From positions 1 to 64,000 of the IMG/VR virus record IMGVR_UViG_3300034152_001291: a DNA stretch of 64,000 nucleotides, one strand, 5' to 3'. The translations under genes were made by a program, and so were the position numbers. Each line of letters opens with the position of its first letter. Position 1 is the first letter of the stretch. The notes beneath the pieces were generated by a model. That model was not told where the DNA came from. It made no database searches and saw nothing but the letters and a program-made list of their open reading frames with translations. The DNA is from a virus. Below are positions 21,205-64,000 of this stretch, piece after piece.

Positions 21205-21426
21205 ATGACTTCCAAGAGCAGATTCGACCAGGGATTCGAGGAGGAGCTGGAGAAGATCTCCATCTTCGGCCTTCCCGGTCGGGGAGGCGTGTCGCCCCGG
21301 AACGTGAAGGACATCGAGGTGAAGAAGCAGGGCGGTTCTTTCACCCTCGTCTATGTCATGACGGACGGGACCCGTCGGGAGATCAAAAACGCGCAGAACC
21401 TGGTATCAGGTTCCATGCAGGCCTGA
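21205..21426 (+). CDS. small putative virion protein with GFEEELEKIS leader
   Basis: GAGGTG RBS; shared leader motif. Confidence 0.65.
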   Translation: MTSKSRFDQGFEEELEKISIFGLPGRGGVSPRNVKDIEVKKQGGSFTLVYVMTDGTRREIKNAQNLVSGSMQA

Positions 21427-21446
21427 GACGCCAGTGTTCCCCTTCC

Positions 21447-21489
21447 GAAAAGGGCGCGCCAGTAGCGAGAGCGAAGACGCGCCCTTTTC
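21447..21489. terminator. hairpin, possible bidirectional terminator
   Basis: GAAAAGGGCGCG/CGCGCCCTTTTC inverted repeat. Confidence 0.45.
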
Positions 21490-21495
21490 TACAGG

Positions 21496-21523
21496 TTGGC
21501 TTCCCCGAAAAGGTCCGTATACT
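21496..21523 (+). promoter_or_regulatory. sigma70-like promoter TTGGCT-N16-TATACT
   Basis: Upstream of 21564. Confidence 0.55.
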
Positions 21524-21563
21524 ATTTGGAAAATCCGTGGTTCCCTGATTTCCAGGAGGACAG

Positions 21564-21974
21564 ATGTTCAACGAACGCATGGCCTTCTCCATGATGCGGG
21601 AGCTGGAGAAGATCGGGATGTGCGGGCCGGGGCACGTGTCAGGGAAGAAGAAGGAGATGGCCAAGAAGGCCTCCATCTTCGACACCGTCCTCGAGAAGAT
21701 CTCCGAGACCGAGACCTCCGAGATCGGGGGAAAGAAGATCAAGGAGAAGGAGGGGAAGCTGACCGAGGACCTCGGCAAGCCCCCATCCGAGGCCAGCGAG
21801 GAGGAGCTGAAGCGCTACATCGAGTCCGGCGGCACCGAGGAGGAGCGCCGCAAGCGCCTCGCTCGGGTCAACCTGGCCCGGGCCCACATGAAGGGCGTCA
21901 AGGCCCAGCACGGGCACGGCCCGAACATGCCGGACGTCGAGGGAGTGGACATCGAGAAGAGCAAAAAGGACTGA
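21564..21974 (+). CDS. putative virion protein with RELEKIG leader
   Basis: AGGAGG RBS; ELEKIG, AKKAS, LEKIS. Confidence 0.7.
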   Translation: MFNERMAFSMMRELEKIGMCGPGHVSGKKKEMAKKASIFDTVLEKISETETSEIGGKKIKEKEGKLTEDLGKPPSEASEEELKRYIESGGTEEERRKRLARVNLARAHMKGVKAQHGHGPNMPDVEGVDIEKSKKD

Positions 21975-21980
21975 CGCGGC

Positions 21981-22352
21981 ATGATCGAGCGCGCCCTCGA
22001 AACTTCCGGATTCAGCGAGGAGATGACCAAGATCTCCCGGTCGCTGAAGGGAAAGGCCAGGGCGGCCGTCATGAGGGCGCTCGCGTCTCTCAGGAAACGG
22101 AAGGGAGGAATCGCCGGGGCCGGGGCCTCCTATCTCGCCACGATGGGTCTGGCGCCTCTGCTGGGATACGGGGCCGGTTCTCTTCTGGCGCCCGGGTCCT
22201 TGCAGAAATCCCGGGAGGAGGTCAAGAAGCCCGAGAGCGTGATCCTTCACTCGATCATGCCCGGCTACAGCGAGTATCTCTACGGGCGAAAGGCCAGGGC
22301 CCGTGAGAAGCTGAGGGAGCACACTCGGAAACGAAACCCGGAGAAGAAGTGA
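21981..22352 (+). CDS. putative virion protein with GFSEEMTKIS leader and Gly-rich hydrophobic segment
   Basis: ORF track; shared leader. Confidence 0.7.
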   Translation: MIERALETSGFSEEMTKISRSLKGKARAAVMRALASLRKRKGGIAGAGASYLATMGLAPLLGYGAGSLLAPGSLQKSREEVKKPESVILHSIMPGYSEYLYGRKARAREKLREHTRKRNPEKK

Positions 22353-22918
22353 TGAAAGAGAAGATACTCGCTTTCTTCAAGAAGAATCCGAAGCCCAGCG
22401 ACGAGGAGTTTCATCGGTAGGCGCAGAGCCAGGGAATCGATCCCGAGAAGGCGGAGGAGGCCGCGTACAGTCTCCTGTCGAAGCGCGTCGGAAAGGAGCC
22501 CTCGAACATGGAAAAGAAAGCGACGGACCTGTTCTTCAGCTCATTCGCCTCCGAGCTGTCTTCCATCTTCAAGGAGGGCGCAACGGGCGCGGAGATCAAG
22601 GCGAAGATTCAGTCGTCGAAGGGCGACACGGGCCCTCCGGGGAAGGGGCTCGAAGATCCCCGGGTCGAGAAGAAGCAGCAGGCGCTCCAGAAGGCAGAAC
22701 GCTCGGTCGACCGGATGCCGGACCTGCCGGGAAAGGGCCTGAAGGATCCCCGCCCGGCCGCCATGCGCCAGGTCGTGAAAGGCGTCAAGACCGGCCTCTC
22801 GAAGACGAGTGAGGTCCGGAAAGAAGGGTCGGGTCTGAGAGGGCTCATGTCCAAGGCTTCGCCCAGGGCCCGGGATTTCATCAAGGCCCTGGCGGAGAAG
22901 ACGAAACGGAAAGTTTGA
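22352..22918 (+). pseudogene. putative virion protein gene with in-frame TAG at 22418-22420 (or a shorter CDS from 22508)
   Basis: ATG overlaps upstream TGA; MKEKILAFFKKNPKPSDEEFHR*AQSQGIDPEKAEEAAYSLL continues in frame into ORF 22508..22918. Confidence 0.6.
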
Positions 22919-22927: not shown

Positions 22928-23191
22928 ATGAACTCTTTCGAGATGGGTTTCCTGAAGGGAGCCCTGGAACTGGAGAAGACGGCGGCGATGCCTCCGGCAG
23001 CCAAGAAGGCGGCGGAGGCGGCGAGAGCCGCAGCGACCAAAGCCGCCGGCGGAGCGGCCAAGGCCGGAGCGGGCGCCGCGAAGGCGGCACCCGAGGCCGT
23101 GAAGAAGCTCATCGAGATGGCCAAGAGACACCCGTTCCTCGCCGGGGGTCTGGGGGGCTATCTCCTCGGAAAATCGAGCTCGAACTCGTAG
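22928..23191 (+). CDS. Ala/Lys-rich small protein with ELEKTA leader and C-terminal glycine zipper
   Basis: GAGGAGG RBS; GFLKGALELEKTAA; LAGGLGGYLLG. Confidence 0.75.
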   Translation: MNSFEMGFLKGALELEKTAAMPPAAKKAAEAARAAATKAAGGAAKAGAGAAKAAPEAVKKLIEMAKRHPFLAGGLGGYLLGKSSSNS

Positions 23192-24296: not shown

Positions 24297-24746
24297 ATGA
24301 AGCGGACAGTACCGAGAACGGGCACAGCAGGCCCTGAGGGGCCCAGAAAGCGGTTCGACGAGGCTTTCGTTCGGGAGCTCGCCAAGATCGGCGCAGGCGT
24401 GCACTGGAGCCCTCTATCGAAGGCCCAGAAGGCCTCGACGGTTAGAGCCGGGTTCAAGCCTGTTCCCAGGCGCACCGAGTCCGGTGTCCCTTTCATGAGC
24501 TCCAAGCCGGTCCATAGCGTCCCCTCCGAGGCTCAGGTCCAGCGGACGGCCCAGAAGATGAAACGCTTGCCCCAGATAGGCCCCAACCCTCTCCTCTCCA
24601 AGACGGGTGCCGAGAACAGGCGGGCGGGGATGTCCCGGGAGGAGATCGAGAAGGCCAGGAAGAGGGCCAAGTATGCCTCCATCGCCAAACGACGGAAGCT
24701 CCAGGAAATGCTCGGTCGCTTGGACCGGACCTCCGGGTCCAAATAG
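24297..24746 (+). CDS. basic putative virion protein with AFVRELAKIG motif
   Basis: ORF track; shared leader. Confidence 0.65.
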   Translation: MKRTVPRTGTAGPEGPRKRFDEAFVRELAKIGAGVHWSPLSKAQKASTVRAGFKPVPRRTESGVPFMSSKPVHSVPSEAQVQRTAQKMKRLPQIGPNPLLSKTGAENRRAGMSREEIEKARKRAKYASIAKRRKLQEMLGRLDRTSGSK

Positions 24747-24755: not shown

Positions 24756-25553
24756 GTGGACTCCAAAGACCCCATCGCCCGAGGATTCGAGGGAGAGCTG
24801 AGAAAGATCGCTCTCGACGTGGGGGCTATGGCTGGCCCCGCCAAGCGGATCCTCTCCAGTCCCGGAGTCCAGGCAGCGGCTGTCCCCGCGGTGGCCGGTG
24901 TCGGTTTGGGCGTCCTCAGTCTCTACGACCTCCTCAAGGCCCGTGGGCTGACCCGGGAGCCGATCACGAGCGAGGAACTCCAAGGGATCGGGCCGGGCCG
25001 GAAACAGGTGGACGCGGAGAAGTACATCAAGGAGATGGAGAAGGCTCACCCCACCGAGCGCCCCCTGGTGCCCGTGACGTCCTCCAGGGACGTTTCCAAG
25101 ATGGTCCGCGACCCCTCGGCCAAAAATCCACTCCTGAAGGTCGTCCTGAAGACGAAGGCCAAGAAGGTCCACAAGGACAAGTCGAACGCTTTCATGTTTC
25201 CCGGCAAGGAGAAGGACTACATCGTTGTCCCCGAGAAGGTCAACCCTCGGGTGGTGGAGCACGAGGTGGGTCACGCCTGGGACATCGAGGGGAAGCCCGA
25301 GAAGGGCCTTCTCCACCGCCTGCATCTGGCCCTCGGAAAGCTCTGGAAGCCGGCCTACCAGAAGACGAAGATGGAGCCCGAGGAGCGCGCTTGGGAGGCG
25401 GCCAAGAAGACGCCCAGCCGGGAGAGGGCGCTCAAGAGCTATGAGGCGGCCTTCCACAAGAGCCGGGGACGTCTGGCAGGCCGGATCGCCATACCTGTGG
25501 CCCTCAGGGCTCTCCTCGCCGGTCTCGGAGCAGGAATGGGGGCCTCGCCATGA
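24756..25553 (+). CDS. putative zincin metallopeptidase with GFEGELRKIA leader
   Basis: HEVGH (HExxH) plus downstream EPEERAW; hydrophobic N- and C-terminal segments. Confidence 0.65.
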   Translation: MDSKDPIARGFEGELRKIALDVGAMAGPAKRILSSPGVQAAAVPAVAGVGLGVLSLYDLLKARGLTREPITSEELQGIGPGRKQVDAEKYIKEMEKAHPTERPLVPVTSSRDVSKMVRDPSAKNPLLKVVLKTKAKKVHKDKSNAFMFPGKEKDYIVVPEKVNPRVVEHEVGHAWDIEGKPEKGLLHRLHLALGKLWKPAYQKTKMEPEERAWEAAKKTPSRERALKSYEAAFHKSRGRLAGRIAIPVALRALLAGLGAGMGASP

Positions 25554-31650: not shown

Positions 31651-32235
31651 ATGAGCCGACTCTTGGACCGGATTCAGGGATTCCATCGCAACCTGATCAA
31701 GACGGCTGCGGAGGAATCGGATTCCTACGTCGTCAAGGTAGCCATGGGAATGGGCGAGGGCGGCCTCGAGGCCTTCCTCTCGAATCTCTTGCAGGAAAGC
31801 CCTCCCGCCAACATCCAGGAGATCCGGGACACGGCGGGCGAGCTGCTCCTCCGGAGGATCGAGCGTATGCTCTCCGAGGAGGAGCAGAGGATGACGAGCG
31901 AGCCCCTCGAGGGACAGATCAAGCAGCTCGAGAACCTGTCCGCTCTCCTGTCGAAGAGAATCCAGATCTCGGAACTCCAGAAGAAGTTCATGGAGAAGCA
32001 GAGGGAGATGGGTCTCCTCTCGCCCCCGGCGGGAATGCTTCCCCAGGGGGCTCCGCCGATGCCCATGCCGGCCCCTCCGGCCGGACCGATGCCGGCGCCC
32101 GTGCCGGGAGCCGCGCCCCTGCCGGGAGCAGCGTCCCCGGCGGCACCCGCGCCGCCTCCGCCGCCCCCGCCCTCGCCGGGTCCCGGAGTTCCCGAAAGTC
32201 CCATGGAGGCGGCGTCGCCTCCTCGAAGAATGTAG
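31651..32235 (+). CDS. putative head protein, coiled coil plus Pro-rich tail
   Basis: GGAGG RBS; LIKTAA, VVKVA. Confidence 0.7.
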   Translation: MSRLLDRIQGFHRNLIKTAAEESDSYVVKVAMGMGEGGLEAFLSNLLQESPPANIQEIRDTAGELLLRRIERMLSEEEQRMTSEPLEGQIKQLENLSALLSKRIQISELQKKFMEKQREMGLLSPPAGMLPQGAPPMPMPAPPAGPMPAPVPGAAPLPGAASPAAPAPPPPPPPSPGPGVPESPMEAASPPRRM

Positions 32236-41051: not shown

Positions 41052-41285
41052 ATGAATGCCATCGAGCGAGCCTTCCGGGGAGAATTGGCCAAGATCGCCA
41101 AGATGGAGATCGAGGACCTTCGTCCTCCGATTGTGAAGTCCCGCCCCAAGGACCAGGATATCAAACCTCCCAAGAGGAAGGGCCCCGTCGCTCTGATCAT
41201 GGGCCCGAAAGGAGGATCAGAGGCGACGAAGAGCATGGGCAAGGCGATGGCGGCGATGGGCAAGCGCCCGGTGAGGTTCGTATGA
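41052..41285 (+). CDS. small basic protein with AFRGELAKIA leader
   Basis: ORF track; shared leader. Confidence 0.7.
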   Translation: MNAIERAFRGELAKIAKMEIEDLRPPIVKSRPKDQDIKPPKRKGPVALIMGPKGGSEATKSMGKAMAAMGKRPVRFV

Positions 41286-41437
41286 CGGCGCTGGAGAGAG
41301 CGTTCCGGGAAGAGATGGCCAAGATCGCCCGGAAAGAGATTCCGAAGAACAGGGGGGCCGTGAAGACCGACGATGTTCCGGCCAAGACTAAGAAGGGTTT
41401 CGACTTCCTGTACGTCCATAGGAAGACTCGAGAATGA
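41282..41437 (+). CDS. 51-aa basic protein with AFREEMAKIA leader
   Basis: ATGA overlaps at both ends; MTALERAFREEMAKIARK...; not in ORF track. Confidence 0.7.
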   Translation: MTALERAFREEMAKIARKEIPKNRGAVKTDDVPAKTKKGFDFLYVHRKTRE

Positions 41438-42068: not shown

Positions 42069-42521
42069 ATGAAGAACAACCGAAGCTTGGTGAGTTCCGC
42101 CGAGACCCAGACGCTTCTCAGAAATCTCGGGGAGCCCGCCCTCATCGCGGGTAGGATCGATCCCCTCGAGGAAGAAGGGCAGGCTACGATCGTCGAGCTG
42201 GTCCCCTCCATTCCCGAGCACAGGGCGGCGTACGAGGAGATCCACAACAACCCGGACAAGTTCGAGGTCGTGCATGAGACGGACTTCGGAGGGCGGGGCA
42301 AGTGCCACGTGCTGGTGAGATTCGTGAGGAAGGGTCCATGGGACATCAATCTTCCTTCGCCTTCCGGGGATTCGCCGAAGAGATCCAGAAGATCGCCGAC
42401 TGGAGGGAAGAAGTCCTCGGTGATGGGGTTCGGAGCGACGCCCAAGAAGTCCTCCCCGAAGAAGGAGGCGCCCAAGAAAAAATCGCCCGCAAAAAGAAAA
42501 AGGAAGAAGACGGGGCGCTGA
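42069..42521 (+). CDS. hypothetical protein; basic tail overlaps next gene
   Basis: ORF track. Confidence 0.5.
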   Translation: MKNNRSLVSSAETQTLLRNLGEPALIAGRIDPLEEEGQATIVELVPSIPEHRAAYEEIHNNPDKFEVVHETDFGGRGKCHVLVRFVRKGPWDINLPSPSGDSPKRSRRSPTGGKKSSVMGFGATPKKSSPKKEAPKKKSPAKRKRKKTGR

Positions 42522-51555: not shown

Positions 51556-53319
51556 ATGACGACGAGTATCGACGGAAAGCCCCTCTTCATCACGAAAGAC
51601 GCCATCGCCGGCGACTTCGAGAAGACGGCGATGTACCGTTTGAGCCGCGACCCCTCCCAGTGGGAGAGGGAGATTCTGACCTTCCTGCACGAGCAGCAGC
51701 CCTTCCTCCAGGACTACGACGTGCGCGTTCACATGAACAAGACCGATCCTGATACTGGGGCCGGGGTGGGCCAAGTCGTCATCGAGGACAAGGTCGCCGT
51801 CCCCGTCATCATCGAGAACTTCAAGCTCTACCCTCTCGACATCTTCTGGCACGAGGACAAGCTGAAGCCCATGACCAAGCCGTCGATCATGTCGGCGCTC
51901 CAGACGATCTCCATCGGCAAGTCGGTGGAGCCGGGGCGGGGCGAGATCAGCGACATGAGCATCTACAACCTGACCCGTGCCCCCTTCTCGGGGAAGTACA
52001 GCTTCGCCGAGGGGCTCACGTACTCGCTCGACGATCTCCAGAGGATGGTCGAGACCCTCGGGGACGAGGGCTTCGAGTACGCGATGCGGTCCAACTTGAT
52101 GTTCAAGGAGGCCTTCGTCTCCTACGTCACGGGGGCGCAGGAAGGTCCCATCGAGAAGACCGCCCAGGACGAGAAGGGAGACGTCAGGGAGGTGGATTTC
52201 ACGCCCTACTACCCCGTCCAGTCAGCGGGCCTCCACGCGGTGGTCCGCGGCGGCCTCGACAAGGCGGCGGCCTTCGTCTTCGACCAGGTCATGGACTGGG
52301 ACGGAAATCTCGAGGAAGGTCGGAAGATGGCTCTCTGCCTGGACGACGGGTCGTACGCGATCCAGGAGTCCTTCGCCGGGCTCCCCATCGAGTCCGATGG
52401 GCTCGAGAAGAACGCGGAGGCCATGGATCCCTCCCGTCCGAGAAAGGGGGATGTGGGATTTTTCTGGCGCGTCAAGGAGGGCAGCGCCGTGGCTATGCGC
52501 CCGGCGGCGGTTCTCTATTCGGGAAGCGGGGAGGACTACGTGCCCTACGTCAAGGTGGCTGCATTGGGGTTCGATGGGAAGGAGAGAAGCATCTACCAGG
52601 GAGAGGCCTACCGGGACGCACTCGTCGTGGGTGAGGGGGTTTTCCTCTCCTCCGACTGGAACTGGACCAAGCTGGGGCGGGCCCGCACGCTCTCCGACCC
52701 TGCGGAGGCCAACCGGTTCGAGTGGCCGGATGGGGTTGCGAGCATTCACCGCCAGGGCTCCGGTCTCCGGGTCGAGGGTCTCGACGGATTTCCCAAGTAC
52801 GCCGAGAGCGAGAAGGTGGTGAAGGGAAAGCTCGAGAAGATCATGGCCCCGGAGATTCTCGGCACACTCCTCAAGAAGGCCAAGGGCGGCGGGAGCGTCT
52901 ACTTCGTCTTCACCAAGAGAGGGGTGGTCAAGGAGGCGTCCGAGCGTAAGCGCGACGCCCTGGTCAAGGTGGCCGGCACCCGGCTTGGACCCGTGAACCT
53001 GGTCCAAGCGGCAGCTCACCTGAAGCCGGCCCGCTATGACTTCTTCAAGCTGGCGGTCGACTTCGACGAGGAGAAGACCAAGAAGACCATCGACTCGGTC
53101 CTGAGCCTGAACTTCATCAATGATGACAACCTCTACAAATTCGTGGAGAATACATCGGATCTGGAGGAGGCAGTCGATGCCCTGGCGAAACTCCTGATCG
53201 GGGCGCGCCTCGGTCTCGACATCGAGGACTCTCCCATTCGGACCGCCCTCTTCTCGATGGACGAGGTGGTCAGGCAGCTGAAGCACTTGGGGTCCCAGGT
53301 GTATGGCGAAGAAAGCTAA
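51556..53319 (+). CDS. putative head/internal protein with many K-x-A motifs
   Basis: AGGAGG RBS; FEKTA, IEKTA, LDKAA, LEKNA, VKEAS, LVKVA, FFKLA. Confidence 0.75.
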   Translation: MTTSIDGKPLFITKDAIAGDFEKTAMYRLSRDPSQWEREILTFLHEQQPFLQDYDVRVHMNKTDPDTGAGVGQVVIEDKVAVPVIIENFKLYPLDIFWHEDKLKPMTKPSIMSALQTISIGKSVEPGRGEISDMSIYNLTRAPFSGKYSFAEGLTYSLDDLQRMVETLGDEGFEYAMRSNLMFKEAFVSYVTGAQEGPIEKTAQDEKGDVREVDFTPYYPVQSAGLHAVVRGGLDKAAAFVFDQVMDWDGNLEEGRKMALCLDDGSYAIQESFAGLPIESDGLEKNAEAMDPSRPRKGDVGFFWRVKEGSAVAMRPAAVLYSGSGEDYVPYVKVAALGFDGKERSIYQGEAYRDALVVGEGVFLSSDWNWTKLGRARTLSDPAEANRFEWPDGVASIHRQGSGLRVEGLDGFPKYAESEKVVKGKLEKIMAPEILGTLLKKAKGGGSVYFVFTKRGVVKEASERKRDALVKVAGTRLGPVNLVQAAAHLKPARYDFFKLAVDFDEEKTKKTIDSVLSLNFINDDNLYKFVENTSDLEEAVDALAKLLIGARLGLDIEDSPIRTALFSMDEVVRQLKHLGSQVYGEES

Positions 53320-54378: not shown

Positions 54379-56184
54379 ATGAAAATCTCCTACGAAGATC
54401 CCGTCTCCAGCGGAATCCGCCGCGCGATCAATCCGGACAAGTTCCGGGTATGGGACACCCCTTCCTGTTCGGGAGACCTGGTCCAGGAGGGGGTGGTCGA
54501 TGTCGCCAAGGATTTCGAGTTCGAGCAGGCCTTCGAGGATAATGAGATCCTCCTCGAGGGGAAATACTCGGACTTCGCCCAGCACCTCGTGACGATCAAC
54601 CGGAAGCCCTTGTCTCTCGAGGGGCGGGAATACCTGAAGCCGATCTACGACCAGTACGAGGAGTTTCCCCGGGGATCGAAAGACATCGTCCTTGTCGCGG
54701 GAAGGCAGGTCGAGAAGTCCAGCTCGATGGCGTCCATTGCCATCACGCGCTGCTGTGTGATCCCCTCCCATACCGTGCTGGTCATCCAGCCCCGGGACGC
54801 CCAGACCAAGATCTTCAGCCAGCAGCGCTTCGACCCGATGGCCACCGACTCCGAGGTCCTTCAGGAGCTTTTCCTCGGGACCAAGAACGTGTGGCAGGTC
54901 GGCGCCAAGATCTTCAACAACGGTTCGGTCGCCAACTTCAAGTCCTGCTTCTATTCGGCGGACCCCATCCGGGGCATCACGTCGGGCGATCTCTTCATCG
55001 ACGAGTTGCAGGACGTGATATCGGACAACATCCCCGTTCTCGAGGAGTGCCAGTCCCACATCTTCCCCGAGGACCGGTTCAACCTCTACGCCGGGACGCC
55101 GAAGACGACCTCCAACACCCTGAACCTCCACTACAAGGAGACATGCCAGTTCGAGTGGATGGTGAAGTGCCAGGGCTGCAAGCACTACAACTTTCTCGAT
55201 GCGAAGGTCATCGGGAAGCACCACTACATCTGCTCGAGGTGCGGGAAGCAGATCTATCCTCTCCTGCACGGGGAGTGGGTCGCGATGCGCCCGAGCAAGA
55301 TCGACGATCGGTGGGGATTTCGCGTGTCGCAGATCATGGTCCCCTTCATGCGTCACAGCGAGGTCCTCAACAAGATGGAGAACCCGAACATCCCGACACG
55401 GGTTTTCCACAACGAGGTCCTCGGCCTCTCTTACGACGTGGGGCAGCTTCTCCTGACGGAGGGGGACATCCTCCGTCGTTGCGAGCCCAGGGTCCCCGAC
55501 ACGCACGAGACGATTCACAAGAGGAGGGATGTCTTCCTCTGCGCCGGGGTGGATCACGGGACCGGGGACTTCGCGGCAGGGGGCATGACGGATCTGGGTG
55601 TGGCCCGGAAGGCCTCCACCCGCCCCTCGTTCACTGCGATAGCGCTCGGCGGTTTCTGCTCCGACAACAAGTTCAGGATCTTCCGGCTGATCAAGTTCAC
55701 GGGGGAGATGGCGAATCTCGCCCGGCAGCCCGAGTTCATCGACGAGGTCATCCGATCCTATGGGGCGAAGTGGATCATGTCCGACCACGGTTTCGGCGCC
55801 CATACGAACGCCAGACTGGTGTCGGACCATGGCTGGACCCGCGTGGAGGACGAGCTGAATCCCCTTCTCATGGAGTGCGAATACTCGGGGATCCAGAAGA
55901 TTCCCGTGAAGTGGCACTCCCGAGCCTACCGCTACATCGTCCAGCGGAACTTCGCGATCGAGCACACCGTGGACGGGATCAAGAAGGGCGAGATCCTCTT
56001 CTTCAACGAGGGGGAGATGAAGCCCTACCTGGACGACTTCACGACCATGTTCACGGAGTACGATTTCAGGAGCAAGTCGGTTCGTTACGACCACGTCCTG
56101 CCGGACGACTGTTTCCAGGCCGTGGTCTACTGTTATCTGGCCGCCTTGCAGCGGCGGGGGAGGCTCACCCCCAGCTACGGTTAG
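54379..56184 (+). CDS. terL: terminase large subunit
   Basis: Walker A variant AGRQVEKSS, Walker B LFIDE, AGTP, CxxC pairs, nuclease AGVDHG and PDDCFQA. Confidence 0.88.
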   Translation: MKISYEDPVSSGIRRAINPDKFRVWDTPSCSGDLVQEGVVDVAKDFEFEQAFEDNEILLEGKYSDFAQHLVTINRKPLSLEGREYLKPIYDQYEEFPRGSKDIVLVAGRQVEKSSSMASIAITRCCVIPSHTVLVIQPRDAQTKIFSQQRFDPMATDSEVLQELFLGTKNVWQVGAKIFNNGSVANFKSCFYSADPIRGITSGDLFIDELQDVISDNIPVLEECQSHIFPEDRFNLYAGTPKTTSNTLNLHYKETCQFEWMVKCQGCKHYNFLDAKVIGKHHYICSRCGKQIYPLLHGEWVAMRPSKIDDRWGFRVSQIMVPFMRHSEVLNKMENPNIPTRVFHNEVLGLSYDVGQLLLTEGDILRRCEPRVPDTHETIHKRRDVFLCAGVDHGTGDFAAGGMTDLGVARKASTRPSFTAIALGGFCSDNKFRIFRLIKFTGEMANLARQPEFIDEVIRSYGAKWIMSDHGFGAHTNARLVSDHGWTRVEDELNPLLMECEYSGIQKIPVKWHSRAYRYIVQRNFAIEHTVDGIKKGEILFFNEGEMKPYLDDFTTMFTEYDFRSKSVRYDHVLPDDCFQAVVYCYLAALQRRGRLTPSYG

Positions 56185-56238: not shown

Positions 56239-57360
56239 ATGAACATCGATCCCATGAAGCTGGCCGACCTGGCCAAGATCGCGAGCGAGCGGTACCTCTC
56301 GGAAGGGAAGCCCCTGAAGGAGGTGGTCGCCGCCCTGGCGGAGGAGCACGAGCTCTCCCCCATGCAGATTCGCAGGGTCGCGGAGTTCGCCAACCACGAG
56401 ACCAACCTGGCGCTCCTGAAACGCTCCGAGGACAAGAATTACACCTTCGATCTGGCCGATCCCGACCAGATCATCCAGGAGGTCCAGTCGGGGACCGTCA
56501 AGACGGCCTCCGTCACGGAGATGGACCTCCTCTCCGTCCTCGACATCTTCCGTCCCTCCCAGGACATGACGAAGGTCGCCGAGGAGATCGAGGGCGTCCG
56601 GAACGACGCCCCGTGGAACAAGGAGGCCTGTGAGCGGCAGGTCGAAATGCTTCTCGAGGACCTCCTCCGGGAGACCGTGTCCCTCAAGAAGGAGGGGGAG
56701 GCGCGGGGTTTCCAGATCCGTGCGGAGATGGAGGTCTGCTTCGAGAAGATCGCTGGGATGGCGCGGGAGCACCTTCAGCAGAATCGTGGAAAGCTGTCCG
56801 ACCTCCTGAAGTTCGCCTGCTCTTACGATCCCGAGAGTTCGGAGGTCTGGAAAGCGCTCTTCGGAGGGCTGAAGGACGAGCTGATGAAGCTGGGCTCCCC
56901 CGTGGACGCCAGGCTCATCGCCGACGACCTGGAGATTCCGGACGGTACGCTTGAGATCGTGAACGGCGAGCACACGCTCGCCATCCAGCTGGACACCCTG
57001 AAGAACAAGATCAGCGACGAGGACCGCTGCAAGAGGAAGACCGCCGTTCTCGGCACCTTTGGCAACGCGGTCATCGACCAGATGGAAATCCTGAAGACGC
57101 CGGAGGACGTGGACCGGAACATGGCCGAGTCCCTGGAGTACCTCTCGAAGAAGGCTTCCGAGGGGTTCGACGCGTTCACGGACTTCCTCCTGAAGGAATC
57201 GAAGCTTCTCGGTCCCACCGGGAAGATTCTTCTCCTCCTCGGCGGCGCCGGCGCCGTGAAGACGCTCGGCGACATCGAGAAGGAGACGGTGAAGGGAACG
57301 ATCAAGGGCACGGCCCGGGAACGGGACGAGCGTCGGAGGCTCCGCGAACTCACCCGATAG
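56239..57360 (+). CDS. putative head/internal protein with K-x-A motifs
   Basis: GAGGAG RBS; LAKIAS, VKTAS, MTKVA, FEKIA, SKKAS; QIRRVAEFAN. Confidence 0.75.
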   Translation: MNIDPMKLADLAKIASERYLSEGKPLKEVVAALAEEHELSPMQIRRVAEFANHETNLALLKRSEDKNYTFDLADPDQIIQEVQSGTVKTASVTEMDLLSVLDIFRPSQDMTKVAEEIEGVRNDAPWNKEACERQVEMLLEDLLRETVSLKKEGEARGFQIRAEMEVCFEKIAGMAREHLQQNRGKLSDLLKFACSYDPESSEVWKALFGGLKDELMKLGSPVDARLIADDLEIPDGTLEIVNGEHTLAIQLDTLKNKISDEDRCKRKTAVLGTFGNAVIDQMEILKTPEDVDRNMAESLEYLSKKASEGFDAFTDFLLKESKLLGPTGKILLLLGGAGAVKTLGDIEKETVKGTIKGTARERDERRRLRELTR

Positions 57361-57391: not shown

Positions 57392-58066
57392 ATGTCTCTT
57401 CTGAAGAAATACTCCTGCCTGTACGGCGATCTCGACTTCACCCCCGAAGAGGAGGCGGATCTCGGGGCGTTCGCCGCGCGCCTGATCAAGGTGGCCGTGG
57501 ACGGAAATCCGGAGGCGCTCGAAGAGTTCTTCCGGAGGGAGTTCGAGGGGGAAATGGACAAGGTGGCGTGCGAGCGCGTCCTGGACTACGGGAACTGGAT
57601 CGTCGAGTTCGACAAGACGGCCGCGCCGCTGGGAGCCGTGATGTCCACCCTCGGGAAGGCATTGGCTCCGCTTTCGCTCGCGCTTGCCGCTGCGCCCCTC
57701 GTTGGACACGGCGTGAAGGCGCTCGGCCGCAAGGGGGGCCTGGAGAAGTCCCTGGAGCAGATCTACAAGCAGAAGCCCCACCTTCGCCAGGACCCCCACA
57801 CGAAGGACTACTTCGAGTCGATCGCATCGTTTGCCCCCGAGGTCGCGAGGAGTCCGCTTCTGGCGGGGAACGTGATCGACCAAATGCACCGGGTCGGTCC
57901 GTCCTACGTGACGCCCCAGCTGATCCGGGAACTGGTGGGGCTCCAGACCCAGACCCAGATGCAGGGTCCGATGGCGACGCCGACGGGGGCGGCGGCCGGC
58001 ATGGCCAAGCCCACCATGGACCTCGCCCAATTTCTCTCGCAGCAGTACGGCAAGGGAGGTCGGTAG
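57392..58066 (+). CDS. putative internal virion protein with K-x-A-rich N-terminus and hydrophobic segment
   Basis: LIKVA, MDKVA, FDKTAA then LGAVMSTLGKALAPLSLALAAAPLV. Confidence 0.7.
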   Translation: MSLLKKYSCLYGDLDFTPEEEADLGAFAARLIKVAVDGNPEALEEFFRREFEGEMDKVACERVLDYGNWIVEFDKTAAPLGAVMSTLGKALAPLSLALAAAPLVGHGVKALGRKGGLEKSLEQIYKQKPHLRQDPHTKDYFESIASFAPEVARSPLLAGNVIDQMHRVGPSYVTPQLIRELVGLQTQTQMQGPMATPTGAAAGMAKPTMDLAQFLSQQYGKGGR

Positions 58067-61000
58067 ATGGGCTACTACCAGGGCCCCCAGATGTACGTGC
58101 TTCCCCGCGAAGAATTGAACCGCCTCTACGACAGGGTCGGCGTGAAAGGGAATCCCCCGTCCAAGGCCGCCCCCGACGTGGAGGATCTGAAGAAGACCGC
58201 GTCGGATCGGTTCGCCAGTTCCTTCGCCGCGCGCCAGATGGGAATGCTGGTGAAGAAGGCCCAGACGCCGGGACGTATTGGGCCGTTGTCGAGAAGAGGG
58301 CTGCCGAAGATGACGCCTGAGTCTCGTGAGGCAGCCCGGAAACGTCTCGCGGAACGAGAACGTCCACCGCGCGGCACCCTTCCCGGCGGCCGCACCCAAG
58401 GTACCAACCCCTTTTCCGAGTGGCCGTCGCCGGGACCTGAGCCGGGGTCGGAACCCGGCGGGAGGACCACGCCTCAACTTGCGCAGCGTGAGGCTGCCCG
58501 AAAGCGTCGTGCGACAAGAATAGGGCGGGAGAAGATCGAAGAGGCCAGGGCGAAGGTCTCGAGGCCGTCCGTGGCGAAAGAGCCCCCGCTTGAGCTTCCC
58601 AGGGCAGCGTTGAAAGGTGTGGGGCGTGGAGTTCGCGCACTCGGAAAAGGGGTTGGTACCTTGGGTGCGGCCGCCGGGAAGGGTGCCGCACGGTACGCCA
58701 AGGGGGTAGCCGGGAAGGGCCTGCCGGCAATGGTCGCGGGTGCGGCTCCCATCGCCCTGGCTCCTTTCAGAGCGGCTTCGTCCGGACTGGCAGCCGTATC
58801 TCCCGGCTACAAGGAGCATATCTACAAGACCGTGCAAAAAGAGAAGGCCGGTCTTCACCCCGGGGTCAGCGGCGTTTTTCAGAGGAGAAGCGCCGAGGGT
58901 CTTCCCGAGAAGATGAAACCCGAGCCCGAAACGATCCCGAAGAAACCTCCGACCACTATGGAATTCGGAGGGAAGAAGGTCACCTACGAGAGGACGCCGG
59001 AGGGCGAACTCCGTCCGGCCAAGCCTCTCCCCGAGCCCGGTCGTCTCGGACGGGTGTTTCAGAAGGTTCCAGGAATGCGCCCCCTCGCGCGCCCCGAGCA
59101 GGCCGAGGCCTACCCGGAGCGTCAGACAAGAGCTCTCCGGGCGGAGAAGGCCGTGAAGGCTCCTTTCGCGGCTATCAGAAGAGTGGTCGGGCGTGGACCC
59201 GAGCGCGCCGCCTGGGGAGAGCTTACGAAAGCATTCGAAGCCCTCCCGGAAAAGGAAAAAGGGAAGGTCCTCGGTCTTCCAGAAAAGGAGCAGCTCGAGT
59301 ATATCAGGAAGAAGATCTCCAAAAAACCAGAGGAACAGCTCCTGAAGGGAAGAATGGGAAAGACGCCCGAAGTGCAGCAGCGCATTCTCGAGGCGGTGGA
59401 GGAGCAGCGCAGGCGCGAGCAGATTCCCCTCCCGGAGAGGGCCAGGGGCATCGCCGAGCGGAAAGAGATCGTGTTTCCCGAGGTCAAGGGGAAAAAGACT
59501 TTTGAGCGCCCCGCGACGGAGGAGGAAGTCCGCCGGTATCTCGAGACCAGAAAGCTCCCGGAGGGCGCAGAGTACAGGGGAAAGCTCAAGGAGATCAAGG
59601 ACATCGAGAAAGCCGTGGCGACCGGTCAGCCCCCGGAGTGGATCAGATCTCGAAAAGGTAAGGTCACCATCACTCCTCCTGGAACGCCTGCCGAGGAGGC
59701 GGCCAAGCAGCGGCTACAGGGAGTCCAGAAGACCAGGGCGGAAGAGCGGCGCCGCGCCAGGATGACGGCGGGCTATCCCGAGGAAAGGGAAGGTCTCGAG
59801 GGACTCCGCCCCGGGAAGGAGAAGGCTCCTCCCGTCGAGAAGCCCGAAGCCAAGAAGCCGGCCGGTGAGCCGAAGCCTCCGCCGCCATCCGGGGCCCCGA
59901 AGGAGGCTCCCGCAGGAGAGAGGCCGACCACCACTGAAGGATTGCGCCGGTGGGCCAACCAGGGGACGCTACATCAGATTCCCAAAGCCGAGATCCAGGC
60001 GATCGTGGCGAAGGAAGGCCTCACCAATCCGGAGGGAATCACGCAGAGTCTCCTGGCCCAGAGCAACCGGATGCGCGAAGCGGGGGCGGCGCAGCGAGGC
60101 CGGCCGCAGGCTGCTCAAGCCGCTCCCAGCGCCGAGGAGATGGCCCAACTGGGGAGGCGGGCGGCGGAGACTTCCCGACCAGGCGACGCCCTCGATCCTG
60201 CTGCTTATATGCTCAACAGGGCGGCAGAGATTCGAGAAATGACACCGAAGGAGATGCAGCCTCTCATCGACCTGGCGAGGAAAATGAGAAACACTCCTCC
60301 GAGGAAGCAGGGCGAAGTTCTTTCCGAGTTCCTCTCCAAAGCTCCCGAAGACAAAAGGGGGTTTTACAGAAGCCTCCTCGAGGAGTACGGGACCGCCTCC
60401 CAGACATCCGGGCGCGTCCGGGTGATGACGGAGGAGGCGGCCCGGGGGAGACTTCCCGAGGTCCAGTTCCGGCCCACGGGATCGCAAGCACAGATGAACG
60501 AGCAGGTCAGCAAGTACAACAAGTGGGCCGAAGAGATGAAGCGCGAGATCCCCGACTTCGATCCGAAAAGGGCGGAGGATGTCGCGGCGGCCCGGCAGCA
60601 CTTCCCGGAGCTTTTCCCCAAGGGTCTCGAGGAAGCGCTCCATGTGACCGAACCGGCCGCGCCTCAGATGCGCCAGGTCGTAGTGGAGTCGGCCCCCCTG
60701 TCTTCCCAGATCACGGCTCCGCAGGCCGAGGCCCGCCAGGCCGCCACGCAGCGCCTGATGGAAAGCGGCTGGACCCCGGAGCAGGCTCAGCAGATGACCG
60801 CGTTCATGGAGGGTCTGGGAGCCTTCCGGTCCACCGGAGTTCCGACCACACCGGCCCAGGGCCCTCCCGCCCCGGGAACTGCGCCCCCGGCCACCGGGGC
60901 CCCCGCTCCGGGGCAGATTCCCGTCGAGGAACTTGGGCAGCTGATCGGAGGGGGAGTGCCTCCCGGGCTTCAGCAGGCATTCGAGCAGGCCGGGGTCCGC

Positions 61001-61270
61001 CAACCCTCGGGGATAATGCGGACCGTTCTCGATATCGCTCCCTACATCGGTCTCCCGATGGCGGCTTCCATGCTCGGGCTGGAGGGAATCGTTCCCCAGC
61101 TCGGAGCCTTCGCGCTCGCTCCCTACGCCGGAGGCCGGCTCCAGTCCATGATGGGGTACGACCCGGCGATGGCGGAGCAGGTCAGGCAGCAGTATGCTCA
61201 ACAGCTCCTTCAGGGATTTCAGCAGGGGATGGGAAGGCAACGGACACTTCCCCCTCCTTCCATGAGTTAG
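58067..61270 (+). CDS. large low-complexity putative internal/ejection protein
   Basis: GGAGG RBS; LKKTAS, LVKKAQ near N-terminus; hydrophobic Gly/Ala segments. Confidence 0.7.
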   Translation: MGYYQGPQMYVLPREELNRLYDRVGVKGNPPSKAAPDVEDLKKTASDRFASSFAARQMGMLVKKAQTPGRIGPLSRRGLPKMTPESREAARKRLAERERPPRGTLPGGRTQGTNPFSEWPSPGPEPGSEPGGRTTPQLAQREAARKRRATRIGREKIEEARAKVSRPSVAKEPPLELPRAALKGVGRGVRALGKGVGTLGAAAGKGAARYAKGVAGKGLPAMVAGAAPIALAPFRAASSGLAAVSPGYKEHIYKTVQKEKAGLHPGVSGVFQRRSAEGLPEKMKPEPETIPKKPPTTMEFGGKKVTYERTPEGELRPAKPLPEPGRLGRVFQKVPGMRPLARPEQAEAYPERQTRALRAEKAVKAPFAAIRRVVGRGPERAAWGELTKAFEALPEKEKGKVLGLPEKEQLEYIRKKISKKPEEQLLKGRMGKTPEVQQRILEAVEEQRRREQIPLPERARGIAERKEIVFPEVKGKKTFERPATEEEVRRYLETRKLPEGAEYRGKLKEIKDIEKAVATGQPPEWIRSRKGKVTITPPGTPAEEAAKQRLQGVQKTRAEERRRARMTAGYPEEREGLEGLRPGKEKAPPVEKPEAKKPAGEPKPPPPSGAPKEAPAGERPTTTEGLRRWANQGTLHQIPKAEIQAIVAKEGLTNPEGITQSLLAQSNRMREAGAAQRGRPQAAQAAPSAEEMAQLGRRAAETSRPGDALDPAAYMLNRAAEIREMTPKEMQPLIDLARKMRNTPPRKQGEVLSEFLSKAPEDKRGFYRSLLEEYGTASQTSGRVRVMTEEAARGRLPEVQFRPTGSQAQMNEQVSKYNKWAEEMKREIPDFDPKRAEDVAAARQHFPELFPKGLEEALHVTEPAAPQMRQVVVESAPLSSQITAPQAEARQAATQRLMESGWTPEQAQQMTAFMEGLGAFRSTGVPTTPAQGPPAPGTAPPATGAPAPGQIPVEELGQLIGGGVPPGLQQAFEQAGVRQPSGIMRTVLDIAPYIGLPMAASMLGLEGIVPQLGAFALAPYAGGRLQSMMGYDPAMAEQVRQQYAQQLLQGFQQGMGRQRTLPPPSMS
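58371..58689. repeat. perfect 52-bp inverted repeat (58371-58422 and 58638-58689)
   Basis: GCGGCACCCTTCCCGGCGGCCGCACCCAAGGTACCAACCCCTTTTCCGAGTG and its exact reverse complement 215 bp apart. Confidence 0.9.
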
Positions 61271-61277
61271 AGGGAAA

Positions 61278-63890
61278 ATGATCACCGACGAAGGTCTTCT
61301 GATCACGCCTCTGGGGATGGACGTTCCCGAGTGGGGCCCGACGGCCATCCCGCTCCACCCCCGCGCCATGGAGAAGATCGCGTCGGGCATCTACATCCCG
61401 GATCGTCTCCTGGAGTTCATGGACCAGGTTCGGCCGAGGGATGACGGCCGCTACGTTCTTTTGCACGCGATCGGGGCGGGAGAGTATTGGGGATGTTTTC
61501 TGCCGGGCTCCCCTGTATTGACGGAAAGCGGTAGGTACCTTCCCATCGAAAAGATCTCTAAGGGGATGCGGGTGATGGGCCGCAGCGGCCTTTTCAGGGA
61601 AGTCCTCACTACATGGGAATACCGTCATCACCGTAGCGGTGTCCGGATCTCGGTGGAAGGTCTTGTCGATGATATAGGAACAACCCCAAACCACGAATTT
61701 CTCTCCCTCTCACATGAGGAGATTCTGTGCGCAAGAGATCGGACTGCGAGGTGTATTCCGGAGACGCAGGGCGCTCAAGGTATCTGCAAACGCCCCCAGT
61801 CGGTCGCTTGCGCCAAGAAGCCCAGGATCCTGACCGGGAAGTGGAGGCGTGCCGATAGCCTTGCCTTGAAGGATTTTCTGCTGTGCTCCATTCCGAAGCA
61901 CGACGCGCCTGCAATCTTCACCGAGGCGGAGGCTCGAGTAGTCGGTCTCTGGGTTGCTGACGGCAATTTCGTGTCGAATGGTGGTAGTGTCGACCTGGAG
62001 TTCTCAGTCTCCGATTCCGAGGCCTATCTGATCGACGACCTTCGGGCTCTCGGGTCTCCCCAGGTTTATAGAGGGCATGGGGCTTGTAAGTCTGTCCGGT
62101 TGAGGAACCACGAATTAGTGTCCAGAATCTATCGGCTGTTCGGCGAGTATTCTCATGGTAAACGGATTCCCGGAGACTTCGCCCGTCAGCCGGAGAACGT
62201 CATACTGGCTTTCCTTTCCGGCTACTTCGACGGCGATGGTTCTCAAAATCTGAAGGATGGCAGCGCCTACGCCCACACTGTCTCGAAGGATCTGGCTCTC
62301 GGAGTTCAGAGGCTTCTTTGGTCCGTCAGGATTCCGTCCACTGTCTGTCCCGCTCCGAAGGCCTATCATGTTCATTTCTCGCTCAGTAGAGGTAGAAGTC
62401 TGGCCGAGAAGTGTCGGAAATTCCGGAGGCACGCTCCGAAAGGACGGCCGCGTTACAGGCAGTTTTTCATCGATGACTACGTTTGTCTTCCGATTCGAAA
62501 GATGGAGAGATTCGAGATCGACGGCCCGGTCTACGATCTCGAAGTGGAAGAAGAGCACACTTATAACGTGGCTCAAGTCGTCTGTCACAACAGCAACAAA
62601 AATTCGGACTACTTCCCCGAGTGGAGTCTGAAGGGCGAGGAGATGCCTCCGGATGTGAAGGAGTACATCCGGGAGCACCGTCTGCCGATTCCGATCGAGT
62701 ACGGGCACAAGACGTTCGAGAGGTACGGGTATCCTTACTTCCATCACAACAACCACGACCCGATCCATTCGATCGGCGAGCGAGTCTGCTGCTCGGCCTA
62801 CAACGACAGGATGCACCGGGTCGAGCTGATCGTTTTCATCCTGAAGAGAAAGGCCCCAGATGTGATTCGAAGGATCGACCGGGGCGAGCCGGTTCCCTGG
62901 TCAATGGGGGCCAAGTTGCCTTTCGACGTGTGCGTGGTTTGCCGCCACCCGGCCCGGAAGAGGAGCGACTACTGTGAGCACCTTCGAAGCATGCTGGGGA
63001 GGATTCTTCCTGACGGTCAGAGGGTTTTCTCCCTGAACTACTTCCCCAGGTTCTTCGACATCAGCGTGGTGAGCGTTCCGGCGGACCGCAGTGCCTACTC
63101 CTTGAAGAAGGTCGCCTCCTATCTCCAGGAAGGGAAGGCCAGGGTGGTCTGGACCCCGGGCATGGACCACGCGTCGGTAGAGCCGGTCCCCGTGGGAGGT
63201 TCAGAAGAGATGGAAAAGTTCGCCGGCATGCTCGACTACCTGGCGAGCGGAGGGGAGAAGTCCGCGGACATCGAGAAAGAGGTTCCGGCCCAGGAGCCCG
63301 CCAAGGACCTCGGAGAGAGTCCGATCCACCCTGATCTCTGGAAGGTCCTCTACGACATGGCGGCCAAGGATCGCGCCGGGACCCCCGAGATGGAGGGCGG
63401 TCTCCTCTCCAGCCTGAGGAGCGAACCCCTGAGAAAGGCCCTGACCGCCCTCACCTCCCTGGGGATCATGTTGAAGCCCAGGGAGGCTGACAGCCTGATC
63501 GGGGATCAGGAAATGCCAGACGGACTTGACGAAGAGGAACCTTCCTCTAAACTGTTAGATGAGTTGACGGGGCTGGTTCCGGAGCGATCCATGGTCGAGC
63601 CTCATTTCTCGATCAGGATCATCCGGATTCGACGTCCGGATTCGTCCCCTTCGGACATCGTCAAGGAAGGGGGCGCCTACGACAGGTACCTGAAGTGGCT
63701 GAGATCGATCGACCTCGAGAAGTTCGCGGAACTGGCGGAGCGTCCCGAGGTCGAGGCCGCGATGGCCGGGAAGGCGCTGAAAGAGAAAAGCCTGAACTTC
63801 CTGGACAAGACGGCCGGAAGGGACTTCGGTCCTTTCCTTCCTTTCGTCGCAGCCATGATGGTCGAGTCGGATCTCCGACCAACCCCGTAG
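61278..63890 (+). CDS. probable prohead (capsid maturation) protease, intein-containing
   Basis: After splicing: EYWG-SNKNSDYF, FHHNN.DP..IG, WSMG, C..C...CEHL, FFDISVVSVPAD. Confidence 0.75.
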   Translation: MITDEGLLITPLGMDVPEWGPTAIPLHPRAMEKIASGIYIPDRLLEFMDQVRPRDDGRYVLLHAIGAGEYWGCFLPGSPVLTESGRYLPIEKISKGMRVMGRSGLFREVLTTWEYRHHRSGVRISVEGLVDDIGTTPNHEFLSLSHEEILCARDRTARCIPETQGAQGICKRPQSVACAKKPRILTGKWRRADSLALKDFLLCSIPKHDAPAIFTEAEARVVGLWVADGNFVSNGGSVDLEFSVSDSEAYLIDDLRALGSPQVYRGHGACKSVRLRNHELVSRIYRLFGEYSHGKRIPGDFARQPENVILAFLSGYFDGDGSQNLKDGSAYAHTVSKDLALGVQRLLWSVRIPSTVCPAPKAYHVHFSLSRGRSLAEKCRKFRRHAPKGRPRYRQFFIDDYVCLPIRKMERFEIDGPVYDLEVEEEHTYNVAQVVCHNSNKNSDYFPEWSLKGEEMPPDVKEYIREHRLPIPIEYGHKTFERYGYPYFHHNNHDPIHSIGERVCCSAYNDRMHRVELIVFILKRKAPDVIRRIDRGEPVPWSMGAKLPFDVCVVCRHPARKRSDYCEHLRSMLGRILPDGQRVFSLNYFPRFFDISVVSVPADRSAYSLKKVASYLQEGKARVVWTPGMDHASVEPVPVGGSEEMEKFAGMLDYLASGGEKSADIEKEVPAQEPAKDLGESPIHPDLWKVLYDMAAKDRAGTPEMEGGLLSSLRSEPLRKALTALTSLGIMLKPREADSLIGDQEMPDGLDEEEPSSKLLDELTGLVPERSMVEPHFSIRIIRIRRPDSSPSDIVKEGGAYDRYLKWLRSIDLEKFAELAERPEVEAAMAGKALKEKSLNFLDKTAGRDFGPFLPFVAAMMVESDLRPTP
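61494..62591 (+). mobile_element. intein with LAGLIDADG homing endonuclease (366 aa) in protease
   Basis: Starts CFLPGSPV, TPNHEF, GLWVADG and FLSGYFDGDG, ends VYDLEV...VCHN followed by Ser. Confidence 0.92.
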
Positions 63891-63930
63891 AACGGAGGTG
63901 AGAAGGTCTCAACCTTCACAAGGAGGACCC

Positions 63931-64000
63931 ATGAAACTGGACTTCGAAAAGCTGATGACCGAGATCAGGACCAAAGGCCTCGACAAGAAGGCCGAGGCCC
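63931..64000 (+). CDS. start of next head gene (scaffold-like position), truncated by window
   Basis: AAGGAGG RBS; MKLDFEKLMTEIRTKGLDKKAEA. Confidence 0.6.
   Translation, partial: MKLDFEKLMTEIRTKGLDKKAEA

Follow-up and report, generated by a model that had tools for sequence, protein, structure and literature searches.

A shared N-terminal leader and a Lys-centred motif on virion-arm proteins of an uncultured phage: a possible Lys-based variant of the system of targeting sequence and protease known from phage T4

A set of small, otherwise dissimilar proteins encoded by the IMG/VR virus record IMGVR_UViG_3300034152_001291 share an N-terminal leader, F-x-x-E-[LMI]-x-K-I-[AGS], while a shorter Lys-centred motif is enriched among the virion-arm proteins of the same record and conserved on both flanks of the catalytic domain of a protease that is, by its predicted fold, a prohead protease. 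We put the probability at roughly 0.6 that leader and protease together constitute a Lys-based variant of the targeting-sequence and protease system of phage T4, with the leader serving targeting as well as cleavage. The stretch analysed here (the window) is the first 64 kb of the 124.7-kb record, which we label G000 and which is about 63% complete and has 60% G+C. Its genes run leftward up to ~19.9 kb and rightward beyond. The right arm is best explained as the virion module of a ~200-kb myovirus that is distantly related to Salmonella phage Arash; a megablast search with positions 40000-64000 found no cultured-phage match at the DNA level.

The shared leader

The leader was found on eight open reading frames (ORFs) of the + strand, 8-24 residues from the start, and in a gapped form on one further ORF (22928); variants of it occur on two more (22508 and 31651). 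The nine leaders quoted in the sequence-only reading that preceded this work were all present at the ORF starts it had named, each behind a Shine-Dalgarno-like purine run. The proteins are listed here with their lengths in amino acids (aa) and their isoelectric points (pI); Phi stands for a hydrophobic residue.

21205-21426, + strand: leader protein, 73 aa, pI 9.2; leader ends at residue 19 (..GFEEELEKIS)
21564-21974, + strand: leader protein, 136 aa, pI 8.6 (..SMMRELEKIG); further Phi-x-K-x-[AS] sites at residues 32 and 43
21981-22352, + strand: leader protein, 123 aa, pI 10.5 (..GFSEEMTKIS); a Gly/Ala-rich hydrophobic stretch behind the leader
22508-22918, + strand: variant-leader protein, 136 aa; begins M-E-K-K-A, then F-A-S-E-L...F-K-E-G
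22928-23191, + strand: leader protein with a gapped leader (two extra residues), 87 aa, Ala-rich (GFLKGALELEKTA)
24297-24746, + strand: leader protein, 149 aa, pI 11.6; leader ends at residue 32 (..AFVRELAKIG)
24756-25553, + strand: leader protein, 265 aa, GTG start, pI 9.9 (..GFEGELRKIA); no family match
31651-32235, + strand: variant-leader protein, 194 aa (..GFHRNLIKTA, Asn in place of Glu)
41052-41285, + strand: leader protein, 77 aa, pI 10.6 (MNAIERAFRGELAKIA)
41282-41437, + strand: leader protein, 51 aa, pI 10.1 (MTALERAFREEMAKIA); body unrelated to that of its neighbour at 41052
42338-42790, + strand: leader protein, 150 aa, pI 10.2 (..GFAEEIQKIA); a second Q-E-K-I-A further in; overlaps the start of the RNA polymerase gene

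Overall the leader proteins are short (51-265 aa) and basic (pI 8.6-11.6), and neither Pfam nor PHROGs assigned any of them to a credible family. The ORF call at 22928 is less certain, as it covers an Ala-rich stretch in which both strands are open. When the leader was removed, the 11 proteins showed no mutual similarity even at the most permissive BLASTP settings, the best E-value (E) being 6e-4 in an Ala/Gly-rich stretch. At the DNA level, the leaders have a median identity of 61% over 33 bases and use six codons at each of two variable positions; the leader is conserved at the protein level. Read from the sequence, the residues F, L, I and A of the leader helix fall on one face.

A strict regular expression, [FMWYL]xx[ED][LMI]xK[ITVF][AGS], applied to six frames of the whole record, matched 12 times, namely at eight N-terminal leaders, once internally in the 57392 protein, once across a stop codon and twice on the minus strand; the latter two look like chance. 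In line with the earlier statement, no long leader was seen in left-arm genes, fibre-like genes or the terminase. A leader profile built from 13 leaders (eight from this genome and five from a relative), which recovers its own seeds by construction, gave no match of 6 bits or more in any of five shuffles of 4196 six-frame segments. Furthermore, an unsupervised comparison of N-terminal 9-mers from 145 ORFs returned the leader set as its best-connected cluster.

As an aside, the body of the 24756-25553 protein contains H-E-V-G-H, a string typical of zinc metallopeptidases. As this protein has no family match, the string is no more than a lead for a packaged enzyme.

The short motif in head proteins

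The short motif is Phi-x-K-x-[AGS], with the core [LIMVF]-x-K-x-[AGS], and its expected counts were obtained from within-protein shuffles. In 11 head-module proteins it occurs 34 times versus 13.3±3.3 expected (z 6.3), and in 17 other right-arm proteins 56 times versus 29.3±5.2 (z 5.2). Tail proteins have 10 versus 5.5 expected, and fibre-like, sheath and terminase proteins 0-2 sites. Enrichment is limited to virion-arm proteins: the counts are 13 versus 13.6 in 34 left-arm proteins and 39 versus 45.7 in the 59 remaining ones (z -0.2 and -1.1 outside the virion arm). Control motifs, either reversed or with Arg or Glu in place of Lys, were not enriched in any group. The form Phi-x-K-[ILVTM]-[AGS] falls within the first 40 residues of 19 of the 163 ORFs, versus 5.4±2.3 in shuffles, and all but one of these 19 are + strand ORFs located from 21205 to 71200. 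When the residues around each Lys in the head proteins of three genomes were profiled without presupposing a motif, L, I or M was about twofold raised at position -2 and Ala about threefold at +2. Hence, the repeated hydrophobic-x-K-x-(A/S/G) pattern that had been noticed in larger proteins and in the protease is real, and is enriched over both shuffles and the left arm. The proteins concerned, other than the protease, are the following.

32273-33436, + strand: multi-site protein, 387 aa; 12 sites versus 1.9 expected, its orthologue in the relative G002 7 versus 1.2
51556-53319, + strand: multi-site protein, 587 aa; 13 sites versus 2.8 expected, in the relative G001 15 versus 2.6, in G002 10 versus 2.3
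56239-57360, + strand: acidic protein, candidate scaffold or core protein, 373 aa; 9 sites versus 1.6 expected, the first at residue 11 (L-A-K-I-A)
57392-58066, + strand: protein with a leader-like F-x-x-x-L-x-K-[IV]-A, 224 aa; the motif at residues ~27-35 is kept in 4 of 5 aligned orthologues; a second F-E-G-E-M-D-K-V-A
58067-61270, + strand: basic protein, 1067 aa; 3 sites, one at residue 41 (L-K-K-T-A)
63931-64000 (to 64338), + strand: acidic 135-aa protein of which the window holds the start; 3 sites; first of five such proteins between the protease and capsid genes

The proteins at 32273, 51556 and 56239 stand out, and independent enrichment is seen in their orthologues from two further genomes; for 56239 this holds for G001 and G002 and also for Arash gp220 and D69 0268. 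In the 51556 protein, a site at residues ~21-25 is kept in all three orthologues; this protein had no usable match in the Atlas search, and a homologue search gave just six unnamed proteins. The major capsid protein lies past the window at record positions 66286-67464 (0.98 on Atlas features, template modelling (TM) score 0.77-0.83 against phage capsid clusters), and it has L-x-K-x-[AG] at residues ~22-29 in G000, in the relatives G001, G004, G005 and G002, and in the cultured phages Arash and D69.

The protease

The sequence-only reading had ascribed cleavage to a spliced protease encoded at 61278; that this gene encodes a protease of the prohead type and is split is borne out by the predicted fold and by an intein of 366 aa.

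61278-63890, + strand: prohead protease by fold, 870 aa; N-extein 1-72, Hint/LAGLIDADG intein 73-438, C-extein 439-870

The intein, which Pfam places at window positions 61494-62591, is inserted exactly at the point where intein-free orthologues run continuous. It sits precisely between the conserved segments E-Y-W-G and x-N-x-N-x-D. The orthologues of G004 and G002 have no intein; that of G001 is 1622 aa long and for this reason probably contains more than one.

Sequence searches placed the protease in no curated protease family: Pfam recognised the intein domains alone, PHROGs gave one weak family of unknown function, the C-terminal part had no sequence match in the PDB, and for the intein-free G004 orthologue (489 aa, 184 homologues) no precomputed protease domain appeared among the 120 homologues listed. 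The AlphaFold2 model is that of the G004 orthologue, based on an alignment with 54 homologues. Its predicted local distance difference test value (pLDDT) exceeds 90 over residues 41-245. In an all-against-all structural search, T4 gp21 (5jbl) came out on top, with Z 9.6, a root-mean-square deviation of 3.0 and 130 of 165 residues aligned, followed by the varicella-zoster virus (VZV) protease with Z 8.9, whereas unrelated entries reached at most 6.4. Foldseek matches were weak (E 0.13 or worse), but mostly to herpesvirus proteases and gp21. Judged by this model, the 61278 protein is a prohead protease of the T4 gp21 / herpesvirus assemblin fold. H125, N127, S177 and D229-I-S231 are invariant in the alignment, with H125 and S177, the candidates for a catalytic His and Ser, present in 54 of 54 homologues. 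The architecture further includes a Cys/His insert, and the C-terminal domain is long and helical.

The short motif occurs seven times in the 61278 protein; among these copies are M-E-K-I-A (residue 31) and L-K-K-V-A (residue 609). In the orthologue alignment, a poorly ordered N-terminal stretch carries [MLF]-[ED]-K-x-A-[SG], with K34 in 54 and A36 in 52 of the 54 homologues, and the end of the domain carries L-x-K-V-A-[SG] (L244 in 50, K246 in 52 and A248 in 51 of 54). In the disordered linker before the helical C-terminal domain there is K-x-[AGS]-[ED]-I-x-K, with K286, [AGS]288 and K292 each found in 54 of 54. Conserved Lys-Ala sites that flank a catalytic domain are the pattern that would be expected of self-cleavage sites, and they are seen in self-processing enzymes of this type such as SPN3US gp245 (PMC10052503). 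When the intein-free protease (54-row alignment) was modelled together with a 33-residue leader (14-row alignment), the prediction gave no answer (score 0.00), which speaks neither for nor against binding.

Uncultured and cultured relatives

The relative G001 is syntenic with G000, with terminases 64% and capsid proteins 84% identical, and has five leader ORFs. The leader proteins of the two genomes do not match each other in BLASTP at E 1e-3, whereas 70 of 163 ORFs do, which suggests that the leader is kept while its cargo turns over. In a third lineage, L036, this position is likewise occupied by a leader ORF, but one with a different body. The large terminase of G001 (L003:9992-11821) was read as two ORFs of 422 and 170 aa, versus one of 601 aa in G000, which could reflect a frameshift, an assembly error or an intervening element.

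More distant relatives do without the leader. The long leader is lacking in L032 and in G002, a complete genome of 193 kb with a capsid protein 51% identical, both of which keep the short motif. The leader profile matched nowhere in G002, G004-G006, L032 or L033, and no other leader emerged from the unsupervised N-terminal comparison in G002.

To gauge the spread of the leader, IMG/VR was scanned with a degenerate DNA pattern for F-x-[DE]-E-Phi-x-K-I-[AGS] in G+C-rich codons, and the pattern was present in at least 118 loci, with at least 122 in-frame matches. Among the matches listed, 9 of 122 are the Walker-B region of AAA+ ATPases, with the string F-[IL]-D-E-[IVF]-D-K-I (L048, L054, L064, L075, L085, L087, L119, L131 and L151); this likeness is probably a coincidence, yet it is a source of false positives in leader scans. 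In 84 of the 113 others among the matches listed, the residue before the Phe, which the pattern leaves free, is Ala, Ser or Gly; 82 have a start codon close upstream, and the 74 with both features have 67 distinct downstream sequences. From the first 80 loci, ten leader contigs were picked by eye, eight with several matches and two of ~200 kb. Nine of these ten encode the protease family (E 1e-16 to 1e-102), including all six that are at least 90% complete, while four control contigs with an internal pattern match gave no strong protease match and one partial one over 57 positions. The latter lies in G017, a 363-kb IMG/VR record without N-terminal leaders, at 93441-93611 (E 4e-11, in the region of the Cys/His insert), and is possibly a more distant member of the family. 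Two complete genomes of 198 and 202 kb have 9 and 10 leader-profile matches, almost all on one strand.

Among cultured phages, tBLASTn with the protease matched three Vibrio phages, D69, D181 and D148, at 32% identity across 84% of the query, and Salmonella phage Arash at 44% across the catalytic domain; it also found Bacillus phage G and, more weakly, cluster-C-like mycobacteriophages. Two of these family members, D69 VPHD69_0270 and Arash gp222 (OQ632216.1 146737-148212), are annotated only as structural or hypothetical. The long leader is absent from the whole Arash and D69 records when these are scanned with the degenerate pattern, and the leader profile has no match in 130 of the 181 kb of Arash. 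The short motif, in contrast to the leader, is enriched in the same 130 kb, in gp220 (10 versus 1.7 expected), gp223 (8 versus 1.4), gp225 (6 versus 1.0), gp242 (8 versus 1.7), gp4 (12 versus 4.7) and the protease homologue gp222 (7 versus 2.3), and in D69 in 0268 (10 versus 1.7), 0271 (9 versus 1.3) and 0273 (5 versus 0.8). The capsid proteins of both phages, gp226 in Arash and 0275 in D69, have L-x-K-E-A at residues 25-29. The six Arash ORFs named here, of seven flagged as enriched, are all in the published virion proteome as far as its accessible tables go (PMC10585845).

Neighbouring genes

Three further genes place the system in its context.

34087-35937, + strand: portal homologue; 27% identity across 481 aa with Arash gp204, which is annotated as portal (E 5e-59); 2 sites, not enriched
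42787-50247, + strand: fused beta-beta' RNA polymerase with an intein (Pfam)
54379-56184, + strand: large terminase, phrog_675, E 8.5e-57; 1 site

The homology to Arash gp204 puts the portal at 34087-35937, and 58067 and 51556, which had been considered for this role, were dropped. At 42787-50247, a single ORF of 2486 aa unites RpoB-type and RpoC-type domains and holds a LAGLIDADG intein according to Pfam. In Arash, separate beta and beta' subunits rank among the most abundant virion proteins in the available part of the report (PMC10585845), so the fused polymerase is probably packaged as well. The protease gene lies in the head module: three proteins are encoded between it and the terminase, and between it and the capsid protein come the five small acidic proteins and then one of 170 aa. 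A weak sheath match also lies past the window. For most head proteins, Pfam and PHROGs gave no credible family. The five small proteins (record positions 63931-65655, mostly past the window; 70-135 aa, pI 4.2-4.8) have one to three Lys-Ala sites each and are candidates for scaffold or core proteins; they are acidic and the leader proteins basic.

Interpretation and alternatives

Taken as a Lys-based variant of the T4 system, the observations would fit together as follows. The protease would mature through intein splicing and recognise the Lys-centred linear motif [LIMVF]-x-K-x-[AGS]; this motif marks both flanks of the protease, the major capsid protein at its N-terminus and several head proteins with many sites. 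In the long form, [AG]-F-x-x-E-[LMI]-x-K-I-[AGS], this Lys-Ala site would be lengthened by Phe and Glu into an amphipathic N-terminal helix, carried by about ten small, basic and rapidly diversifying proteins. The helix would dock these cargo proteins to the scaffold or the inner shell during prohead assembly, whereupon the protease would trim the leader at its K-I-A end, and the basic cargo would stay in the head with the DNA and be injected into the host, as are the T4 internal proteins. The earlier proposal of a Lys-based propeptide is supported in part: head and virion proteins are enriched in the motif, which is invariant or almost invariant where it flanks the catalytic domain, and the leader sits on unrelated bodies. 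That the propeptide is cut off, and that it loads the capsid, is what we infer from these findings. More tentatively, and at somewhat less than even odds, the F-x-[DE]-E-L-x-K-I-A helix may be a universal portable head-loading tag of a large, almost entirely uncultured clade of ~200-kb phages, with 5-10 small, basic, fast-changing injected cargo proteins per genome, which presumably would be counter-defence or take-over factors.

Several points weigh against the T4-like interpretation. The long leader is not essential to the protease system, since G002, L032, Arash and D69 lack it. In the model, L-x-K-V-A at 244-248 sits in the last strand of the fold, and its conservation could therefore be structural. 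Conservation does not extend to all sites: the N-terminal one of the 56239 protein becomes L-A-K-E-V-S in the orthologues of G004 and G005 and M-A-R-S-A in that of G002. In several cases the motif starts right at Met1, and a cut there would take off almost nothing. The ORFs, moreover, come from a crude caller based on G+C content at third codon positions and Shine-Dalgarno signals; some of the 163 calls are spurious, and the motif counts rest on them. Lastly, the Arash proteome table, in its accessible part, lists gp221, gp223 and gp224 with a sequence coverage of 100% and gp220 with one of 96% (PMC10585845), and thus no sign that large parts of gp220-gp224 are removed from the particles. Cut fragments could, however, stay inside the particle, which limits the weight of this point, and with 116 of 252 proteins detected in the table (PMC10585845, as available) the preparation may not have been clean. 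The words protease and cleavage do not occur in the accessible text of that paper.

A first alternative, which we consider unlikely, is that the motif is a protease site and nothing else, such that propeptides keep the proteins inactive or soluble and other protein parts decide on head entry. The presence of the short motif in all relatives, the limitation of the long helix to a part of the group and the invariant sites that flank the protease domain would all suit this explanation. However, the additional conserved F and E, which are kept on unrelated bodies in many genomes, are superfluous for the short motif, and this suggests a second, binding function.

The opposite possibility, an improbable one in our judgement, is that the leader is an uncut docking helix for a common partner, be it the scaffold, the inner capsid surface, the C-terminal domain of the protease, the packaged polymerase or the DNA, and that its likeness to the short motif reflects a common binding preference instead of cleavage. 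The single helix face formed by F, L, I and A would be explained in this manner, as would the motifs at Met1, where cutting would be pointless, and the high peptide coverage in Arash. Nevertheless, the core motif lies in disordered linkers on both sides of the gp21-fold domain, and self-cleavage is the rule in T4-like and SPN3US systems according to the accessible text of PMC10052503.

A role of the leader outside the virion, such as membrane association, recognition by an unfoldase or protease of the host, or sorting into a different compartment of the infected cell, appears very unlikely. Several bodies do have Gly/Ala-rich hydrophobic stretches, and the leader-like string is an AAA+ Walker-B region in the 9 of 122 listed matches mentioned above, but the leader genes are situated in the virion arm beside genes for the head, the portal and the polymerase, enrichment of the core motif is confined to virion proteins, and the leader co-occurs with the prohead protease family. 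That the leaders mark ordinary paralogues, or a recombination or regulatory repeat at the DNA level, is hardly credible and was rejected: 41052 and 41282 are adjacent and 85% identical over their 33 leader bases, but the bodies are dissimilar outside a low-complexity stretch and do not match across genomes, and the leader codons are diverse.

Significance

To our knowledge, leader-directed loading of injected proteins has so far been well worked out mainly for T4. If the interpretation given here is true, there is a second tag, set apart from that of T4 by description and used with a different, Lys-based protease code. This tag would occur in many large phages that have not been cultured, coupled with a protease family to which no curated library gives a match. 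It would furnish a sequence-based criterion by which virion-internal and probably injected proteins of metagenomic phages could be recognised, and it would correct annotations in Arash-like and D69-like phages, where the Arash member of the protease family is labelled only 'structural protein'. Should the tag be portable throughout the clade, scanning for it would yield an inventory of the proteins that any such phage injects, and foreign proteins could be packed into capsids by means of the tag and its protease. The short motif is directly testable in two cultured phages.

Comparison with known systems

The T4 enzyme gp21 follows a cleavage rule centred on Glu, and T4-like enzymes follow a hydrophobic-x-charged rule, whereas the motif here is Lys-x-Ala. 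Further differences from T4 are the leader of ~16-32 residues with its F-x-x-E-L-x-K-I-A helix, the protease without a Pfam match but with a Cys/His insert, a long helical C-terminal domain and an intein, and the affiliation to another phage group, with a packaged multisubunit RNA polymerase in the relative Arash. On the other hand, the protease has the fold of gp21, and small acidic proteins adjoin its gene. In T4, a short N-terminal capsid targeting sequence is the only part common to the diverse, fast-evolving, small basic internal proteins IPI-III (PMC3012670, in the available text); here, likewise, a leader is shared by unrelated, fast-evolving small basic proteins, for which a place inside the head is proposed.

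The systems of phiKZ (gp175) and SPN3US (gp245) have an RNA polymerase in the virion, as is probable for the present one. In the accessible part of PMC10052503, SPN3US gp245 removes N-terminal propeptides after A-x-E, many head and ejection proteins lose such propeptides, some with several copies of the motif, and the protease cuts itself. The two enzymes cut after A-x-E or (S/A/G)-x-E, and that part of the text describes no common long leader helix (PMC10052503).

None of six leader strings occurred in the searchable literature apart from one unrelated Leishmania match, and concept searches gave only work on T4, SPN3US, P1 and HK97, with the leader, the Lys code, the protease family and its spread not found among it. 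The accessible text of Hua et al. 2017 (PMC5646251) yielded no cleavage-site data.

As to the bond that would be cut, the odds between a position after Lys and one after Ala are about even. HK97 gp4 cuts its capsid protein after Lys, at K103/S104 (PMC10275583, in the part available), which makes a cut directly after Lys plausible here. HK97 gp4 is also a prohead protease, but HK97 is not known to have separate cargo sharing a leader, and the Pfam and PDB searches with the protease described here gave no sequence match to gp4. Herpesvirus assemblin has the same fold (VZV protease, Z 8.9), but belongs to a eukaryotic virus and is not known to be part of a leader system for diverse cargo. Its rule requires a small residue at P1 followed by Ser, which K-V-A-[SG] at the protease's own sites resembles, and a cut after Ala would parallel it.

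Encapsulin cargo-loading peptides, finally, are portable and short and bring unrelated cargo inside a shell of the HK97 fold. They are set apart by description, as they are usually C-terminal, stay uncut and are unrelated to the leader in sequence. The principle is known; in the searchable literature, no mention was found of this leader, of a code based on Lys, of the present protease family or of its spread over many uncultured ~200-kb phages.

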